Shown: in pieces, positions 1-62,138 of the stretch
How the letters are laid out: each line of letters opens with the position of its first letter
How positions within the stretch are numbered: position 1 is the first letter of the stretch
Assembly: GCA_951406725.2 (NCBI GenBank)
Contig: OX597814.1
Location: 100,750,001-100,814,000 of the forward strand
Direction: 5' to 3'
Origin: Octopus vulgaris
Lineage: Eukaryota
Length of the DNA stretch: 64,000 bases
Made by a program: the position numbers and the translations under genes
Notes under the pieces: model-generated
What the model was told of the DNA's origin: nothing
Database searches by the model: none
The model's input: only the letters and a program-made list of their open reading frames with translations

Positions 1-512
1 GGCAAAATTCACCGCAGAGAATTATTTTCTGCAGAATTATTTCCGGAATTTTGGCGCGCCAAATCGAAGACTCTTGAAATATAACCCCAAATGTGATTGG
101 TAGAATTATATACATTTTCAATCTCATGCGGACGTTTTGTGTATAGTTCTGCAAATTATATTTTGCTACGACGATCAAACTGACGAGTTGCGGACATCTG
201 CGTAACTAATTATATAAGTGGTGACAACGAAAGCGGGTTTGTGGTTAATCTGTATATTTTGTATCGTTTCATTTGTCTTGCTCGCTTACCTTCTGGCGTT
301 TGCTAAATTTTCTTGAGAACATTCCTTTCTTAGTGGTAAGACCATACGGGGTCGATATCTAGCATAATGGATGCCCACTTAGTGGTCATCCCTCTTATAT
401 GTATATAATATAATTTTTCTGAATCTTCAGAATTTTCTATATGCTAGATCACTGGTTTTAAATTGATATCAATCAAATTAATATTCAATTTTTCACCCTT
501 ATTATTTTAAAC
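1..512 (+). mobile_element. Diverged HHR-bearing Penelope-pLTR/retrozyme-like element, relative of the 536-bp unit at 54.6-57.0 kb
   Basis: CAAA-CTGACGA-GTTG...CAAC-GAAA...TTTG at 176-241. The 3' part (cccacttagtggtcatccctcttatat ... attaatattcaatttttcacccttatta) aligns by eye with the 536-bp unit (gccacatagtgaccactctcttatat ... attagtatctaattctctcacccttatta). It ends at a (TA)n tract. Confidence 0.6.
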
Positions 513-520
513 TTAAATCT

Positions 521-6393: not shown

Positions 6394-6632
6394 ATGTACC
6401 TTATTTACATTATTTACAATTGACAGATATTTGTCATCGTGTTGTTTGTTGTTAACACAACGTTTCGGCTGATATACCCTCCAGCCTTCATCAGGTTTCT
6501 TGGGGAACCCAAGTTCGAAATTTCTCCAAGACACCTGATGGCGGCTGGAGGATATATCAGCCAAAACGTTGTATTAACAACAAACAAGATACGGATAAAT
6601 ATCCGTCAATTGTAAATAATGTAAATAATGTA
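6394..6632. mobile_element. Divergent inverted pair of HHR-bearing pLTR fragments
   Basis: Arms of about 110 bp. Minus-strand HHR at 6454-6499 (CTGATGA-A-GGCTG...CAGCC-GAA-ACGT-T-GTGTT) and a mutated plus-strand copy at 6530-6575. Confidence 0.8.
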
Positions 6633-12449: not shown

Positions 12450-12620
12450 CAGAAAAGCAAAAGACGAAGACAGGTGTTTGAACAACAAGCAGGTATATTA
12501 GCTTGATGCTCGGGAGAGTGAAAAAGTCTTTTACGTTTCGAGCTTACGCTCTTCAACAAAAAGGATATATGTAACTGCCGTTGGTTTGTTCGTTGGTTGA
12601 TTTCTCCAGTCACACTTTAT
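12450..12620 (-). mobile_element. pLTR fragment with minimal hammerhead (12527-12564)
   Basis: Minus strand CCTTT-TTGTTGA-A-GAGC-GTAA-GCTC-GAA-ACGT-A-AAAGA; same family as 630-790. Confidence 0.65.
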
Positions 12621-14290: not shown

Positions 14291-14910
14291 TGGCGACCTC
14301 GTTAGCACGCCGGGAAAATGCTTAGCGGTATTTCGTCTGCCGTTACGTTCTGAGTTCAAATTCCGCCGAGGTTGACTTTGCCTTTCATCCTTTCGAGGTC
14401 AATTAAATAAGTACCAGTTACGCACAGGGGTCGATGTAATCGACTTAATCCGATTATCTGTCCTTGTTTGTTCTCTCTGTGTTTAGCCCCTTGTGGATAG
14501 TAAAGAAATAGGTATTTCATCTGCTGCTACGTTCTGAGTTCAAATTCCACCGAGGTCGACTTTGCCTTTCATCCTTTCAGGTTCGATAAATTAAGTACGA
14601 GTTGCGTAATATAGTCGATCTAATCGACTGGCCACCTCCCCCAAAATTTCGGGCCTTGTGCCTGAGTAGAACAGAAAAGAAAAGCTTACTATTTTTGTTA
14701 AGGCGGCGAACTCTTTAGCATGCCGGGCAAAATGCTTAGCGGTATTTCCTCTGCTGCTACCTTCTGAGTTCAAATTGCGCCGACCTCGACTTTTCCTTTC
14801 ATCCTTTTGGGGTCAAAGAAATAAGCACCAGTTACGCACTGGGATCGATGTAATCGACTAGCACCCTTCCCAAATAAAATTTTCAAGACCTTGTGCCTAG
14901 CATAGAAATA
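14291..14910 (+). mobile_element. Cluster of three tandem SINE family B units
   Basis: Repeated GTTCTGAGTTCAAATTCC...GACTTTGCCTTTCATCCTTT...AAGTACCAG blocks at about 14347, 14531 and 14761. Confidence 0.85.
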
Positions 14911-24359: not shown

Positions 24360-24569
24360 TATGTTGATTCGTTAGCTACTGCACGCATTTTTTTTTTTTT
24401 CTCTCCTTCTTTCTGTGTTTTTCTCTCTCTGTGTATCTTTCTGTTGAAGAGCGTAGGCTCGAAACGTTAAAGACTTGTTTTATTTATATTTCCTGAGCGC
24501 CATACTAATACAATTGTTCGTTTGTTTTCCACCTGCCTTCGTCTTTTGTTTATTTTCATAAAGCTTCCC

Positions 24570-34168: not shown

Positions 34169-34230
<62 letters not shown>

Positions 34231-34236
<6 letters not shown>

Positions 34237-34427
34237 TATATAGAAGGAGCTTCTACAGGACTAGTACTGTTTCATTCAAGAGAAATCTTCAGGAGCTTCC
34301 TGAAGATTTCTCTTGAATGAAACAGTACTAGTCCTGTAGAAGCTCCTTCTATATAATAAATTAATTTTACTCTGCTATGTATTGAGTACCTTACTTACTG
34401 TGGTTAACCCCGAATCAACCCGGGACC

Positions 34428-34430
<3 letters not shown>
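34231..34430. mobile_element. Perfect palindromic pLTR pair (64-bp arms, 3-bp spacer) plus tail
   Basis: 34231-34294 is the exact reverse complement of 34298-34361. Flanked by (TA)n; second family copy at 60153-60450. Confidence 0.9.
34291..34347 (+). ncRNA. Type I hammerhead ribozyme (predicted)
   Basis: AGGAGCTTC-CTGAAGA-T-TTC-TCTT-GAA-T-GAA-ACAG-TACTAGTC-CTGT-A-GAAGCTCCT: 9-bp helix I, intact core, GUA site after 34338. Confidence 0.75.
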
Positions 34431-40019: not shown

Positions 40020-40785
40020 AGTGCTGATAGCTTAAGACTTGGAATTTTCCAGCATTAAACTGCATATTATTCTTCTCAGCTTATCTGTAAATTGCATCCA
40101 ACTCCTGCTGTAGGCATGCAACATCGCTAGGGTTTTGTGTATTTTCGACGAGATTTTCGTTTCGTCTGTGTAGCTAGCAAGCGTGACTACCCGAGCAGCT
40201 GAGGGCATATCTGAGAGGGACACTATGAAAAGCAGTGGTCCCAAGACAGTGCCCTGTGGAACACCACTCACTATTTGAGGTGGCTTCATTGCCTGACTTA
40301 TATCTTTCAGAAAGTCATGTAACCACTCTCCAAGTTTTCCGCCTATGCCAAAATCACTATCTTTGTGGCATATCATATAATGATCAACTTTATCAAAATC
40401 TTTTGCAAAGTCAAGGTATATTACGTCCACATTTGAGTTGTCGAGTAACTACTTCAACACCCAGTCATAGTACTGTAGGGGCTGTGTCAGGCAAATCCTA
40501 CCTGCTCGAAAACCAAGCTGGATATCACTCAGCAAGTCATTTTTTTTTAATGAAAGCGATTAGTTTCCTTCTGACTAATCGTTCCATGACTTTGCTGATG
40601 TGTGAAGTCAGACAGATAGATTTATAACATTTGGCATCTGCTCTGTGTCCTCCTTTATGTATTGGACATATTGCCTTCTTTAGTATTCTTGGCAGCTTGC
40701 CATTTGCAAAAGAGCTCTGGAAGAGAATCTGTACTGGTTTTGCCAGGGCACGTTTGCAGGATTTGAGGAAGATTGCAGGGAAAGC
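40020..40785 (-). mobile_element. CR1-group LINE reverse transcriptase fragment
   Basis: PIHKGG...YKSICLTS..SKVMER; DVIYLDFAKDFDKVDH; SGVPQGTVLGPLLF; YTDETKI (decayed YADD). Confidence 0.9.
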
Positions 40786-45693: not shown

Positions 45694-45900
45694 TCGGCGA
45701 GGTGGCAGAATCGTTAGCACGCCTGACAAAATGCTTAGCGGTATTTCGCACGTCGCTACGTTCTGTGTTCGAATACTGCTGAGGTTGACTTTGCTTTTCA
45801 TCCTTTCGTGGATGATAAATTAAGTACCAGTTAAACACTGGGGCCGATGTAATCGACTATCCCCCTCCTCCAAAATTCAAACATTCTGCTGTAGTAGAAA
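45694..45900 (+). mobile_element. SINE family B
   Basis: cggcgaggtggcagaatcgttagcacg...gactttgcttttcatcctttcg. Confidence 0.85.
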
Positions 45901-52584: not shown

Positions 52585-52830
52585 ATATATACGTTTGTAC
52601 AGGACACCACAAATAGACGTAGAACTCAACGAGAAACGAAAAAGTAAAACCAACATGGAACGGACCATTTTTTTAACAGCGAAAAAACAGAGTACAAGAC
52701 AACTACACAAGGAAAAATCCCCTTCATCAGCTGTCCCTAGTTCAACTCCAATGTGTTTCGAAGGTGAGGACAGAACACGTCTCGCCGAACTAATCCTTCC
52801 TGCGAAAGAATTAAATATGTATATAATTAA
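52585..52830 (-). mobile_element. Short interspersed repeat with permuted hammerhead-like motifs
   Basis: Minus strand has CCTTC-GAAACAC upstream of CTGATGA-AGGGG. A related tail lies at about 46115-46232. Confidence 0.4.
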
Positions 52831-52927: not shown

Positions 52928-54895
52928 CACATATATACACACATATATATATATACACATATATATATACATGCATCTCTATATATACATATATATACAC
53001 ACACATTATACACTCATACATACATACACACACACGCACACACACACACATACATTGTTTGATGTCAGCTAGCCGAACTAAGTAGACTGGTAATTTTTCT
53101 TTTTTAATAGTTTAGCTGATCTCAAATACAAAAAAAGTTCATATTTTTCATCCGATGAAATAGTGTACTCTTACGTTATCTTCTATGCCACGATCCATGC
53201 GCTGGGAAGCAGGGCTTTTCATTTCAATTTTCAATGGTGTTTTGTTTCTCTGCACAAGCAGTTATAAGTGTTCAAATATCCTTGACATGAAACAGTTTTG
53301 AATTCATAACAAAGCTGTTGACTGATTGTAATACTTCTGACGTTCAGAATCTTATACATTTTTAAGACTTGTATTTACTTAAACACTGTTTAAAATCTCC
53401 AAGTATGTTCAAACTTGCTGACAGATACATGTGTATAGTACTCAGAAATTAAATGTCGGATCGTGTCGTTAGTGTCGGTGAAATCTGTTTGACATGACTA
53501 GTATTACTTATTTTTGTGTAACACAGGCATAACTAGTATTACTCATTTTTTGTAGCTCAGATGCAGCACGAATTTTGTCAGTGAACCGGTTGCGGTCTGA
53601 AAGCGAGGGAAATATTTTGACAAATTAAATTTAAATGTTGAAGTGAATCTAATAGATTTTGTGTGTTTCTTAAATGACTTATGACCACCTTCCACGCTGC
53701 AGTTGTTTTCGTTCCAGCACGCAATCTCAGATCAGGTCACTTGCTATGCAAGTACATCTACAAGTTTATTTTAATGATTATTACAAATAATAATAAAATA
53801 TAAAATAAAATAGTAGCACCAGCATTATTCTCGATTTCAGGCTACATGCAACATGTCTAATTATATATTAATTGGATATCAAGAAGTTGTTCGTTTAATT
53901 CGGAATTAATTCGAAGGCAAAGTGAGGCGGATCTAGAGAGATGCAAAATATATAGATTTAGTTTACAAACACAAACACATACACACACACACACCCACAC
54001 ACACACACACCCATGTATGCGCTTGTGAGTCTGTGTGAGTCTGTGTGTTTACATGAGTGCGTAAGTGTATGTGTGTGTGTGTATGAGTGTGTACGTATGT
54101 ATTATACCATACTTTGAAACTGTGTGGACAGTGTTCTATAATGATAGACCGCTAGTGTATGCGTACTAAGAATTATAATTTAGTAAAAAAAATTAGATTA
54201 TATATCTTAGGTTAGTGAATATGGTATGTATACATACAAGCCCGTGATTCGTGTGTTTTATGAGTTGTATTTTAGACTGATACCAAATTCCGCGGTTGTT
54301 CTTTTTACGGATTCAAATTTTGGCTAAGATATTGCATATACAAGGGATTCTAGTTTAGGAAGCATAATTGCATGTTCAGTGTGTGTGAGTGTGTGTTTAT
54401 GTATATACATATGCGCGTTCATGTAACTTTGTGTGGACGCTTAAAACTATTACCATCCACATTCTTTTGATATGCGCAAGTAAAGTTTGAAACAACACGC
54501 TCTACCTTTAAACGAGAAGAGCAAGATTTTTCTTTTAATTTCAGATATCATTCTTCTAGTTCTAGGGATGACTGTACTATATATATATGACTGTAAATAT
54601 ATATATATATATATATAAATAATTAATTAATAAGGGTGAGAGAATTAGATACTAATTTAATAGTATATCTATTCAACACCAAGTGGCCTAGTGCTCCGAG
54701 AAACCTGGATTATTATAATATTTTATAACATATTATAATATTTTTACAAAATAAATATAAGAGAGTGGTCACTATGTGGCTCACTCCAGCACCAGTTAAT
54801 CCAAAAGGTTTCAACCACGAAAATACATGTTTCCCATGAAAGTCAGTACGATTGTTAGCTCACACGGACAGGGCAAATAAAAAATAACAAAAATA

Positions 54896-54992
54896 CAGAT
54901 TATTTTGGGACAATTGTTTCGCTATTAATGAATTAAATGTAATTTTACTTACAAAAAAAATCCATTTGTAGCTCGTCAGCCAGAACTATCTG
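54896..54992 (-). ncRNA. Type I hammerhead ribozyme (predicted)
   Basis: Reverse complement of 56227-56323. Confidence 0.85.
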
Positions 54993-55431
54993 GATGAAAT
55001 CCACTCAATCACACGCCAGATTTTACCATAACGATAAATACGCGTGTGGTTCAATTGATTACATCCGACGTTATAATTCAAATGCCCCAACTAACAGCGC
55101 GGCAAACTTTCACGGAAAACAAATACAGCATTTAGAAATAAATGCAGCATAATTATAATTAATTAATAAGGGTGAGAGAATTAGATACTAATTTAATAGT
55201 ATATCTATTCAACACCAAGTGGCCTAGTGCTCCGAGAAACCTGGATTATTATAATATTTTATAACATATTATAATATTTTTACAAAATAAATATAAGAGA
55301 GTGGTCACTATGTGGCTCACTCCAGCACCAGTTAATCCAAAAGGTTTCAACCACGAAAATACATGTTTCCCATGAAAGTCAGTACGATTGTTAGCTCACA
55401 CGGACAGGGCAAATAAAAAATAACAAAAATA

Positions 55432-55527
55432 CAGATTATTTTGGGACAATTGTTTCGCTATTAATGAATTAAATGTAATTTTACTTACAAAAAAATCCAT
55501 TTGTAGCTCGTCAGCCAGAACTATCTG
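55432..55527 (-). ncRNA. Type I hammerhead ribozyme (predicted)
   Basis: Reverse complement of 56227-56323, with one fewer U in loop II. Confidence 0.85.
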
Positions 55528-56226
55528 GATGAAATCCACTCAATCACACGCCAGATTTTACCATAACGATAAATACGCGTGTGGTTCAATTGATTACATC
55601 CGACGTTATAATTCAAATGCCCCAACTAACAGCGCGGCAAACTTTCACGGAAAACAAATACAGCATTTAGAAATAAATGCAGCATAATTATAATTAATTA
55701 ATAAGGGTGAGAGAATTAGATACTAATTTAATAGTATATCTATTCAACACCAAGTGGCCTAGTGCTCCGAGAAACCTGGATTATTATAATATTTTATAAC
55801 ATATTATAATATTTTTACAAAATAAATATAAGAGAGTGGTCACTATGTGGCTCACTCCAGCACCAGTTAATCCAAAAGGTTTCAACCACGAAAATACATG
55901 TTTCCCATGAGTGACCACTCTCTTATATTTATTTTGTAAAAATATTATAATATGTTATAAAATATTATAATAATCCAGGTTTCTCGGAGCACTAGGCCAC
56001 TTGGTGTTGAATAGATATACTATTAAATTAGTATCTAATTCTCTCACCCTTATTAATTAATTATAATTATGCTGCATTTATTTCTAAATGCTGTATTTGT
56101 TTTCCGTGAAAGTTTGCCGCGCTGTTAGTTGGGGCATTTGAATTATAACGTCGGATGTAATCAATTGAACCACACGCGTATTTATCGTTATGGTAAAATC
56201 TGGCGTGTGATTGAGTGGATTTCATC

Positions 56227-56323
56227 CAGATAGTTCTGGCTGACGAGCTACAAATGGATTTTTTTTGTAAGTAAAATTACATTTAATTCATTAATAGCGA
56301 AACAATTGTCCCAAAATAATCTG
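56227..56323 (+). ncRNA. Type I hammerhead ribozyme (predicted)
   Basis: CAGATAGTTCTGG-CTGACGA-GCTA-[AT-rich loop]-TAGC-GAA-ACAATTGT-C-CCAAAATAATCTG: canonical core, GUC site after 56310. Confidence 0.85.
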
Positions 56324-56762
56324 TATTTTTGTTATTTTTTATTTGCCCTGTCCGTGTGAGCTAACAATCGTACTGACTTTCATGGGAAACATGTATTTTC
56401 GTGGTTGAAACCTTTTGGATTAACTGGTGCTGGAGTGAGCCACATAGTGACCACTCTCTTATATTTATTTTGTAAAAATATTATAATATGTTATAAAATA
56501 TTATAATAATCCAGGTTTCTCGGAGCACTAGGCCACTTGGTGTTGAATAGATATACTATTAAATTAGTATCTAATTCTCTCACCCTTATTAATTAATTAT
56601 AATTATGCTGCATTTATTTCTAAATGCTGTATTTGTTTTCCGTGAAAGTTTGCCGCGCTGTTAGTTGGGGCATTTGAATTATAACGTCGGATGTAATCAA
56701 TTGAACCACACGCGTATTTATCGTTATGGTAAAATCTGGCGTGTGATTGAGTGGATTTCATC

Positions 56763-56859
56763 CAGATAGTTCTGGCTGACGAGCTACAAATGGATTTTTT
56801 TTGTAAGTAAAATTACATTTAATTCATTAATAGCGAAACAATTGTCCCAAAATAATCTG
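56763..56859 (+). ncRNA. Type I hammerhead ribozyme (predicted)
   Basis: Identical copy 536 bp downstream; GUC site after 56846. Confidence 0.85.
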
Positions 56860-56995
56860 TATTTTTGTTATTTTTTATTTGCCCTGTCCGTGTGAGCTAA
56901 CAATCGTACTGACTTTCATGGGAAACATGTATTTTCGTGGTTGAAACCTTTTGGATTAACTGGTGCTGGAGTGAGCCACATAGTGACCACTCTCT

Positions 56996-57064
<69 letters not shown>

Positions 57065-57210
57065 TACATACATACATACATACATACATACATACATACA
57101 TACATACATACATACATAATATGCATACATATAAACATATATACCTATAACTACATGCACGCGCATATATGTATACATATGTATACATACACACTCACAC
57201 ACACTCACAC

Positions 57211-58256: not shown

Positions 58257-58486
58257 AAGCGGCGAGCTGGCAGAAACGTTAGCGCGCCGGGCGAAATGCT
58301 TAGCGGTATTTCATCTGTCGTTAGTTCTGAGTTCAAATTCCACCGGGATCAACTCTGCCTTTCATCCTTTCGTGGTCGATAAATAAAGTACCAGTTTCGC
58401 ACTGGGGTCGATGTAATCGACTTAATCCGTTTGTCTGTCCTTGTTTGTCCCCTCTGTGTTTAGCCCCTTGTGGGTAGTAAAGAAAT
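58257..58486 (+). mobile_element. SINE family B, full length
   Basis: gcggcgagctggcagaaacgttagc...gccccttgtgggtagtaaagaaat. Confidence 0.9.
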
Positions 58487-59602
58487 GTAGATAGATAAGA
58501 TAGACAGATAAATAGATAGATAGATAGAAAGATGGATAGATAATGTGTTTCCGGGTTTGTACATTTTCCGAGTATTTATGTGTCGTTTCGGTTCTATCTA
58601 CTAGCTTGTTAGAAATATATGCTTCAATAACGGAGTGTATAAAGCGATATATGAATAATATCATAATATATCTATGTGTGTTCAATATGTAACTCTGTAA
58701 ATCGTTTTTATTTATTCATTTCCTTCTTTCTTTGTTTCTTTAATTATTTTACTCCCGTTTTCAATTTTGTGTAAATTTATGTGGTTACATGTTTATGTTC
58801 TGTATCTAACACTGCTCGAGACTTCTAAATACAAGCCTCAAATTTCTTTGAAAATAATACATCATTTAACAAATCAGTGAATCCAATTTGATATCCACCA
58901 TTGATCAAAATGGCCGAACTCTCAAAATGTTTTTAGTTCAACAAAGTATAAAGAGAAATAAATTTGTTACATGAGATCATTTATGTTTCATCTATGATGA
59001 AAGCCTGTCCGAGTGATGGCTGTGTAATTTTAATTAAATTTGTTGATTTGAAGAACATTGTCGAATAATTTGTAACCGTTTTTAGAGCTCTAGTTAATTT
59101 TCTTTTACTACATCAAGTTACACGTGTAATTGTAAGTCTTTCAGTCATTTACTACATAGTTGTGCGCTTGGTAAACAAGAAAATACATACAGAGAAATCA
59201 AAATGAAAAACAGAAAAACTTATTGACTCGTAAAATGAAAGAGAGGACAAGAAATAATTAGATAGGTGGCTAGTTAAAGAGTGAATACATACATAAATAT
59301 GAATGAGTGAGAGAGTGAGAGAGAAAGTATGTGTGTGTGTGTGTGAGTGTGTGTGTATGTATTTGTGAAAACATATCAGGATAGTGTCACACAAAGAAAA
59401 ATAACCAGTGACGCAGAAGTGATAGACAGAGAGACTGTCAGCGTTAAATACGTACACGTAGAACATGATGTGACTATCCATTTGTTATCAAACTAACTGC
59501 TCTCTTCTACAGTTAGGCATTAAACAAAACGTACGTATATTGATGTGGTCGCGCGAGTGTGTGGGTCTGTAAATGCAATGCTTATATATGTATATATATT
59601 CG

Positions 59603-60152: not shown

Positions 60153-60158
<6 letters not shown>

Positions 60159-60450
60159 TCCCGGTTGATTCGGGGTTAACCACAGTAAGTAAGGTACTCA
60201 ATACATAGCAGATAAATTAATTTATTATATAGAAGGAGTTCTAGGACTAGTACTGTTTCATTCAAGAAATTTCAGGAAGCATTTAACAAGAATTGTATTA
60301 GCATTTATACATTTAAGATGGGGACTTTTTGATGCCTACCCCAAAAGTCCCCCACCCACTCCTCTAAATGTATATATTCTTGTTAAATAGCTTCTGAAGA
60401 TTTCTCTTGAATGAACAGTACTAGTCCTGTAGAACTTTCATATAATAAAT
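60153..60450. mobile_element. Second palindromic pLTR pair of the 34231 family
   Basis: Same tail and HHR sequences with longer arms (ggggactttt/aaaagtcccc at the centre); flanked by (TA)n. Confidence 0.85.
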
Positions 60451-60451
60451 A

Positions 60452-60523
<72 letters not shown>

Positions 60524-61448: not shown

Positions 61449-61829
61449 CATCTCTATGCATATGTGCATACATATACATACACATGCATACATACAAGCA
61501 TACATACAAACATATAGACACTCACATAGATACGCACACACAAGCGTATATGACAATTCAAAATGGAAGATGGAAACGATTAGCGGAATAAGAACGAAAT
61601 ACAATGAAACGTAAAAATGAGAAGCCCAGTTTGAAGTTAGATAAATTGAAATTCCATGTTATTGCATCTCTAGATGCGCGAGTAATAGAGGGAATATCAC
61701 TGAGGTAATGGACAGACAAGGACTAGACATGAAGGGCAACTTACAAGTAGAATGGAAAATTGCAGATAGAAAAAATACATTAAAGGAATATAAGTTTGTA
61801 TTAATGTATATAATCCTTTCCAATATAGC

Positions 61830-62138
61830 CACAAGGCCTGGAATTTTGGGTGAGTGGAGCAGGTGATTTGATCAACCGCAGTATGCAACTGGTACTTAAT
61901 TTATCGACCCCGAAAGGATGAAAGGCAAAGTAGAGCTCGACGGAATTTGAACTCAGAAAGTAGCGACGGGCGAAATACCTATTTCTTTACTACCCACACA
62001 GAGAGGACAAACAAGGACAGACAAACGGATCGAGTCGATTATATCGACCCCAGTGCGTAACTGGTATTTATTCAATCGATCCCGAAAGGATGAAAGGCAA
62101 AGTCGACCTCGGTGGAATTTGAACTCAGAAAGTAGCGA
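61830..62138 (-). mobile_element. SINE family B dimer
   Basis: Two gaaaggatgaaaggcaaagt...ggaatttgaactcagaa blocks. Confidence 0.85.

Follow-up and report, generated by a model that had tools for sequence, protein, structure and literature searches.

A 64,000-nucleotide stretch of the Octopus vulgaris genome (contig OX597814.1, positions 100,750,001 to 100,814,000), referred to here as the window, appears from its sequence to contain a real hammerhead ribozyme within a previously undescribed non-LTR retrozyme that carries the insertion hallmarks of Penelope-like elements (PLEs). The favored reading, to which we assign a probability of about 0.6, is that the locus is a recent insertion of a non-autonomous, PLE-derived non-LTR retrozyme with a 536-nt unit, whose hammerhead is competent as a monomer and for which pairing between copies is optional. 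The unit recurs at a constant period, has no ORF and has a conserved RNA fold; the locus holds four hammerheads and has an inverted-plus-tandem layout within (TA)n. No description of the 536-nt family was found in the literature searched, a partial collection without repeat databases.

The first hammerhead of the right-hand block (R1, 56227..56323, + strand) is formed by the core CTGACGA (56240-56246) and the segment GAAACAATTGTCCCA (56299-56313), in which G12, A13 and A14 (GAA, 56299-56301) are followed by the 8-mer palindrome ACAATTGT (56302-56309) and by C17 (56310), after which cleavage is predicted. The palindrome recurs 536 nt downstream (56838-56845) and, again 536 nt apart, in the minus-strand block (55446-55453 and 54910-54917), giving four type I hammerheads, two per strand, whose sole difference is one T in a T-run. 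R2 (56763..56859, +; core 56776, C17 at 56846) is an exact copy of R1, L1 (55432..55527, −; core 55514) has the loop 2 T-run shortened by one T, and L2 (54896..54992, −) has its core at 54979. The initial annotation of this DNA had described a palindromic 8-mer as helix III of a hammerhead, in copies 536 nt apart, and this much is confirmed from the sequence; the hammerhead is of type I and its helix III is weak. In every copy helix II pairs GCTA with TAGC (56247-56250/56295-56298 in R1) around a structured 44-nt loop 2; its 4 bp include G10.1-C11.1, and CTGACGA runs directly into G10.1 with no extra base after A9. Helix I consists of TGG/CCA and an interrupted extension (in R1 3 bp, a C.A mismatch, 3 bp, an A.A mismatch and 4-5 bp) and is paired at 5 of 6 positions, the C.A mismatch falling at the fourth pair. 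Given this mismatch and the atypically long loop 2, the contact between loops 1 and 2 may be missing. Loop 2 (56251-56294) starts with CAAAU and ends with A, a two-stem hairpin being inserted between them. As we read Figure S1 of PMC4209133 in its machine-extracted form, the Schistosoma loop 2 is CAAAUA, and the octopus loop may be a canonical loop carrying an insertion.

All four copies pass a hammerhead descriptor (CUGANGA, GAAA and UH core, helices I-III, open at helix I) with every core nucleotide intact. Together with two minimal motifs they make up the 6 descriptor matches in the window, whereas 100 block-wise shuffles yielded 0.06 on average and never more than 1, the core pattern having been widened to CTG[A/T]NGA only after the motif at 24441 had been noticed. 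The 8-mer ACAATTGT alone is not enriched: it occurs 5 times in the window, while shuffles average 3.31 and 27 of 100 reach 5; the fifth copy, at 24510, lies outside any hammerhead. No Rfam hammerhead family matched at the gathering threshold (whole window, 0 matches) or at E<=10 (local search), probably owing to the 44-nt loop 2, a structured form that Rfam models overlook. Rfam matches to microRNA-like fold-backs (E<=10) were set aside because the inverted repeat and microsatellites account for them. Prokaryotic genomes searched for the core with the start of helix II gave 71 loci, where chance alone would give about 69, and none of the 71 closes helix II, so that no relatives were found there.

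Several other hammerhead-like sequences occur in the window. The two minimal motifs (24433-24475, + strand, and 725-765, − strand) are minimal hammerheads in the strict sense: the palindrome is the 4-nt ACGT, an A bulges out after position 9 and core position 6 is T rather than A (CTGTTGA, CTGTAGA). They (at 24441 and 757) are single copies of one repeat family, which has a weaker homologue at 12455-12563, and though single copies they should depend most on pairing. At 6409-6620 another minimal-hammerhead-like motif forms an inverted pair (83% identical), with CTGATGA, a bulged A, a 5-bp helix II, GAAA-CG-TT at 6494 (−) and a degenerate helix I. A further family with a CTGAAGA core (34223-34430 and 60154-60485), whose helix III may have 4 bp and an 8-nt loop, forms two head-to-head inverted insertions beside (TA)n with no tandem, and fails the descriptor. 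At 52690-52770 (−) CTGATGA-A-GGGG has its complementary CTTC-GAAA upstream rather than downstream, an arrangement of permuted half-cores. The window also contains a dispersed SINE-like family (1842-1975, 2440-2660, 14316-14874, 45740-45873, 58304-58492 and 61827-62137), which we take to resemble cephalopod SINEs.

The repeat unit (56065..56600, + strand) is 536 nt long (535 in one copy), has a GC content of 33% and lacks a long ORF, the longest stop-to-stop frame inside it being 87 aa; Tandem Repeats Finder, with a longest period of 500, missed it. Its RNA is strongly self-paired, with an MFE of -153.4 (z -7.8) on the ribozyme strand versus -119.6 (z -5.2) on the opposite strand. As a circular monomer the predicted MFE is -148.3 against -106.2 +/- 4.8 for shuffled sequences and -114.4 for the antisense circle (z -8.8, 67% paired, 0 of 60 shuffles as low). 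Of the unit's frames, three were scanned and gave no Pfam match. Among 149 of the 248 non-repetitive window ORFs (out of 438 frames >=55 aa) the Pfam scan found neither a GIY-YIG nor a PLE domain; its matches were one RVT_1 fragment (40035-40448) and two below the cut-off. The RVT_1 fragment (− strand, E 4e-11) is unlinked to the retrozyme element and, judged by its motifs, is presumably LINE-like. Within the window no autonomous partner was found, no ORF with reverse transcriptase and GIY-YIG lies between pseudo-LTRs, and a search for tRNA genes found none.

The window includes one diverged relative of the unit (1..520, + strand; clipped by the window edge), which aligns along it in the same order at 56% identity (282 of 502 positions, z 13.3), stops shortly past the same CACCCTTATTA motif, before (TA)n, and folds on the same strand as the unit (z -3.2 versus -1.2). 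On the thin basis of two sequences and a structure derived from one of them, 23 of 175 pairs are changed on both sides versus 11.2 +/- 2.3 in shuffled controls (0 of 500 as high) and 3-7 when the alignment is slid. The hairpin at 56153-56227 has compensatory changes in 8 of its 21 pairs and none broken; over the whole comparison 44 of 149 comparable pairs are broken. The fold is conserved across the unit, both upstream and downstream of the ribozyme. In the degenerate hammerhead of the relative (at 180) helix II is GTTG/CAAC, keeping 4 pairs with two compensatory changes, the helix III region (AGCGGGT) is non-palindromic and the motif fails the descriptor; this hammerhead has probably decayed and says little on selection. 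RNAalifold did not recover the hammerhead from the two-sequence alignment, in which MAFFT misaligns it. Loop 2 of the relative likewise has C first and A last.

The units are arranged in two blocks that meet head to head. The right block (55910..57000, +) spans 1,091 nt or 2.03 units and the left block (54619..55910, −, inverted) 1,292 nt or 2.41 units; each has its 5' end at the central junction, where the two share a single base (55910), and its 3' end in (TA)n, the left one directly after CACCCTTATTA. Together they form an inverted repeat (54755..57000) with arms of ~1,090 bp that differ by one 1-nt indel, separated by a 65-nt spacer (55845-55909). The flanking (TA)n consists of a target remnant on the left (54568..54618), with a short ATGACTGTA duplication, and the target on the right (56996..57098). 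A tandem with a 5'-inverted copy and a (TA)n bias is the insertion structure of PLEs: according to PMC8557442, PLEs in general form partial tandems with a 5'-truncated copy in inverted orientation and favor (TA)n, and so do Naiads, which have no canonical hammerheads. The initial annotation held that an obligate dimer explains the tandem organization, and that each block has exactly the two hammerheads such a dimer needs. The count is right, but it carries little significance, as two complete hammerheads are expected at random phase for a 536-nt period with P=0.88 in 1,091 nt and P=0.74 in 1,292 nt. The proposed explanation of the tandem is not supported either, since the layout is typical of PLEs, Naiads included, and since the release of a unit takes two cut sites whichever fold the ribozyme adopts, so that the tandem is explicable without a dimer. 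PMC4209133 proposes that tandems arise by more-than-unit reverse transcription of a circle, and bioRxiv 10.64898/2026.07.22.740005 states that two hammerheads are required to start the cycle. Because the locus is an inverted repeat, a transcript across both blocks would be double-stranded, and a working precursor would therefore have to start within or at one block; a read-through RNA would be a long hairpin, likely to be processed into small RNAs or to be edited.

The reading that competes most seriously with a monomer-competent ribozyme is an obligate double hammerhead, in which helix III does not form at all in a monomer, cleavage is confined to tandem transcripts and monomeric circles escape being cut again. 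We regard it as unlikely, and much turns on the class of stem. The initial annotation had called helix III loop-less; in standard hammerhead numbering the sequence and the descriptor scan instead give, for R1 (56302..56309, +), two pairs (A15.1-U16.1 and C15.2-G16.2) closing a 4-nt AAUU loop. PMC4209133 assigns to canonical metazoan hammerheads a short helix III (1-2 bp) ending in a small loop that is palindromic, as is found here (2 bp and AAUU), and to minimal PLE motifs no such stem and loop. Likewise, PMC7229834 (Cervera and de la Pena) describes axolotl Amex1 as having one pair and a tetraloop, like the amphibian satellites, and HHR_Amex2 as having two pairs and a tetraloop, 'more stable... 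similar to invertebrate HHRs'. The comparison made by the initial annotation, with minimal PLE and newt hammerheads, thus has to be replaced by one with the invertebrate-like class. In the same source the Amex1 and Amex2 monomers cleave to 6% and 22% in an hour, respectively, both being far better as dimers, and coral and mussel retrozyme monomers cleave at ~0.8 and ~0.1 per min. Among reviews (PMC7761336/PMC6765202/PMC6155905), one by the same group reports efficient monomer cleavage in most invertebrate type I motifs tested, and another reports cleavage by single newt motifs given an internally looped extension of helix I, a feature predicted in the octopus hammerhead too. The octopus motif thus belongs to a class whose monomers range from slow to efficient, a placement that does not extend to the helix III sequences of the coral and mussel motifs. 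Amex2, with the same stem as the octopus motif, counts against a monomer-competent ribozyme through its low monomer yield and large gain as a dimer, and both axolotl motifs, together with the precedent in PMC4209133, are what known motifs offer in favor of an obligate dimer.

The palindromic loop itself also favors such a dimer. However, 4 of the 8 self-complementary positions of ACAATTGT are obligatory in any hammerhead core, and the chance of a self-complementary tetraloop is 7.5% at the local base composition. Moreover, AAUU forms the weakest duplex of the 16 possible AC-NNNN-GU palindromes (-6.4, the strongest being -14.9). The helix III of the relative, albeit degenerate, is not palindromic, and the presence of two hammerheads per block follows from block length.

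Folding was modeled with ViennaRNA at the level of secondary structure only, with energies not scaled to hammerheads whose activity is known. Two tandem copies can form a nested, foldable double hammerhead, and in this respect the earlier proposal that two copies can pair stands, with a slight preference in the model. On the uncalibrated scale, an active monomer lies 5.7 kcal/mol above the free ensemble, a pair of them 11.5 and the dimer 9.2 (right block) or 8.4 (left block), so that at 37 C the pair of active monomers exceeds the dimer by 2.2-3.0 kcal/mol (3.2 at 20 C). Per site the gain is 1.1-1.5 kcal/mol (4.2-4.6 in the dimer versus 5.7 in the monomer), which in models of 1.1-1.3 kb is taken to be within method error, and a single active monomer remains cheaper than a dimer. 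In the unconstrained fold the local helices I and II dominate (P=0.94 and 0.99), the swapped helix I is at or below 0.001, the inter-copy helix III at or below 0.0006 and the local helix III at 0.002. The local helix III is rare because G5-A6-C7 pairs with G16.2-U16.1-C17, an inactive local mispair that forms the predicted ground state (P 0.94) and is kept in the circle. That a linear or circular monomer is predicted to spend 94% of its time in this mispair speaks for an obligate dimer, as does the requirement that the copied template held uncut hammerheads, which would be consistent with a silent circle.

The route to the dimer weighs on the other side. The hammerhead is enclosed in a predicted rod (56098..56395, +; -96.5 kcal/mol) that includes the covarying hairpin 56153-56227, and a nested dimer would need a swap of partners by all 54 enclosing pairs, a partial tip-to-tip swap being outside the model. 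According to the model the local fold is in place ~60 nt beyond G12, ~400 nt before the next core is synthesized. The instability of the isolated monomer hairpin (+2.4 kcal/mol), by contrast, counts against the monomer. A hairpin of CCAGA/TCTGG (56226-56239), involving the 5' strand of helix I, rivals helix I early in synthesis, with P 0.82-0.89 at G12+15 and 0.02 later, and is a possible timing delay in the model. Nearest-neighbor models omit the magnesium-stabilized core, and a positive cost is expected for any hammerhead. The models thus permit an advantage for the dimer and do not demonstrate an obligate one; the per-site costs (5.7 kcal/mol in the monomer and 4.2-4.6 in the dimer), the weak palindrome duplex and the 54-pair swap all run against the term 'obligate' as it was originally applied to this motif.

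Under the favored reading, that of a PLE-derived retrozyme with a monomer-competent hammerhead, transcription would begin inside or just ahead of one block, the transcript would be cut at two successive C17 residues to release a 536-nt RNA, and a host ligase would circularize it. A PLE reverse transcriptase, with each strand of a nicked (TA)n site serving as primer at AU-rich parts of the RNA, would then go round the template more than twice and leave two 5'-truncated tandem blocks head to head. The tandem would be a product of copying, useful since two cut sites delimit the unit. A single hammerhead would most likely cleave slowly, on leaving the mispaired ground state (G5-A6-C7 with G16.2-U16.1-C17), and a double hammerhead may raise cleavage several-fold, pairing being an optional gain rather than a requirement. 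Such an enhancement of cleavage by the dimer is plausible.

A second alternative, which we consider doubtful, is that neither the monomeric nor the dimeric hammerhead has more than slight activity unless host factors help, and that the element is copied from uncut multimeric RNA with the motif as a passenger. It would fit the position of both active folds above the free ensemble, the helix I mismatch and the competing CCAGA/UCUGG hairpin early in synthesis. Known motifs add to it: in bioRxiv 10.64898/2026.07.22.740005 cleavage was seen in only 1 of 9 dimers of Xenopus retrozymes tested, the other 8 being without it, and in PMC4209133 PLE motifs are weak even when dimeric. However, the positive costs are those expected for any hammerhead, the core nucleotides are intact in all four copies and the relative retains its four helix II pairs through two compensatory changes. 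Least probable, and very much so, is that the repeats are what remains of the pseudo-LTRs of an autonomous PLE after truncation, or arose by local duplication of the DNA or a fold-back in the assembly, in each case without a cycle of unit-length RNA. The near identity of the arms, the single young locus in the window and the local amplification by unequal crossover that bioRxiv 10.64898/2026.07.22.740005 allows would suit these origins, but the three unit-to-unit junctions share one period rather than independent truncation points, the flanks are unlike on the two sides, the CTGAAGA family has the head-to-head (TA)n layout at two places, and the fold is conserved over the unit on both sides of the ribozyme.

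Beyond the monomer-competent retrozyme that we favor, a more elaborate model can be put forward, very tentatively. In it the 536-nt RNA would act as a switch, locked by the mispair in the monomer or circle and freed by exchange of the 54-pair domain between tandem units, and the locus, whose 3' ends differ and whose arms each hold more than two rounds of copying, would directly document in the genome two priming events by a PLE enzyme on circular retrozyme RNA.

The idea that links a palindromic helix III, dimers and tandems was published in 2014 or earlier (PMC4209133), and the finding is therefore unsurprising. The locus is a modestly useful test case, being young and intact with ~1.1 kb per block, in which monomer and dimer cleavage, circle formation and PLE-driven mobilization are assayable.

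The minimal PLE hammerheads (Cervera and de la Pena 2014, PMC4209133) share with the octopus motif a palindromic 15-16 region, a PLE-type setting and the possibility of a dimer. They have a 4-nt palindrome with no helix III or loop 3, an extra base after A9 and a longer, simple helix II, and the octopus motif has none of these: it has four extra loop bases and no unpaired base between 9 and 10.1. Newt satellite 2 and axolotl HHR_Amex1 likewise have a tandem type I hammerhead unit and a palindromic loop 3, but Amex1, which is amphibian-satellite-like, has one pair with a tetraloop where the octopus motif has two. The closer match is to the invertebrate type I hammerheads and HHR_Amex2, with which the motif shares the helix III architecture, the 4-bp helix II (G10.1-C11.1), an extended helix I and the lack of an extra base after A9, and from which it differs in a helix I broken at the fourth pair and a long loop 2.

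At the level of the element, the EN+ Penelope-like elements (Craig et al. 2021, PMC8557442) have in common with the octopus locus partial tandems, an inverted 5'-truncated copy at the 5' end, a (TA)n target, no discernible TSD and a hammerhead near the 3' end. The octopus element differs in having no RT or GIY-YIG ORF, and its 3' ends differ by 136 nt rather than by a 30-40 bp tail. With the metazoan non-LTR retrozymes (Cervera and de la Pena 2020, PMC7229834; Li et al. 2026, bioRxiv 10.64898/2026.07.22.740005) it shares tandem non-coding type I hammerhead units with GC below 50% (0.33 here), at least two consecutive hammerheads (complete ones in both blocks), a self-paired predicted circle and no LTR, PBS or PPT seen. 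Its 536-nt unit is larger than the 170-400 nt of PMC7229834 and within the 51-972 bp of bioRxiv 10.64898/2026.07.22.740005. It departs from these retrozymes in its structured 44-nt loop 2 and its inverted head-to-head second block. bioRxiv 10.64898/2026.07.22.740005 argues for a PLE origin of such elements mainly from vertebrates, and to the proposal that animal retrozymes are non-autonomous PLE derivatives the octopus locus adds an example of the invertebrate type with PLE hallmarks.
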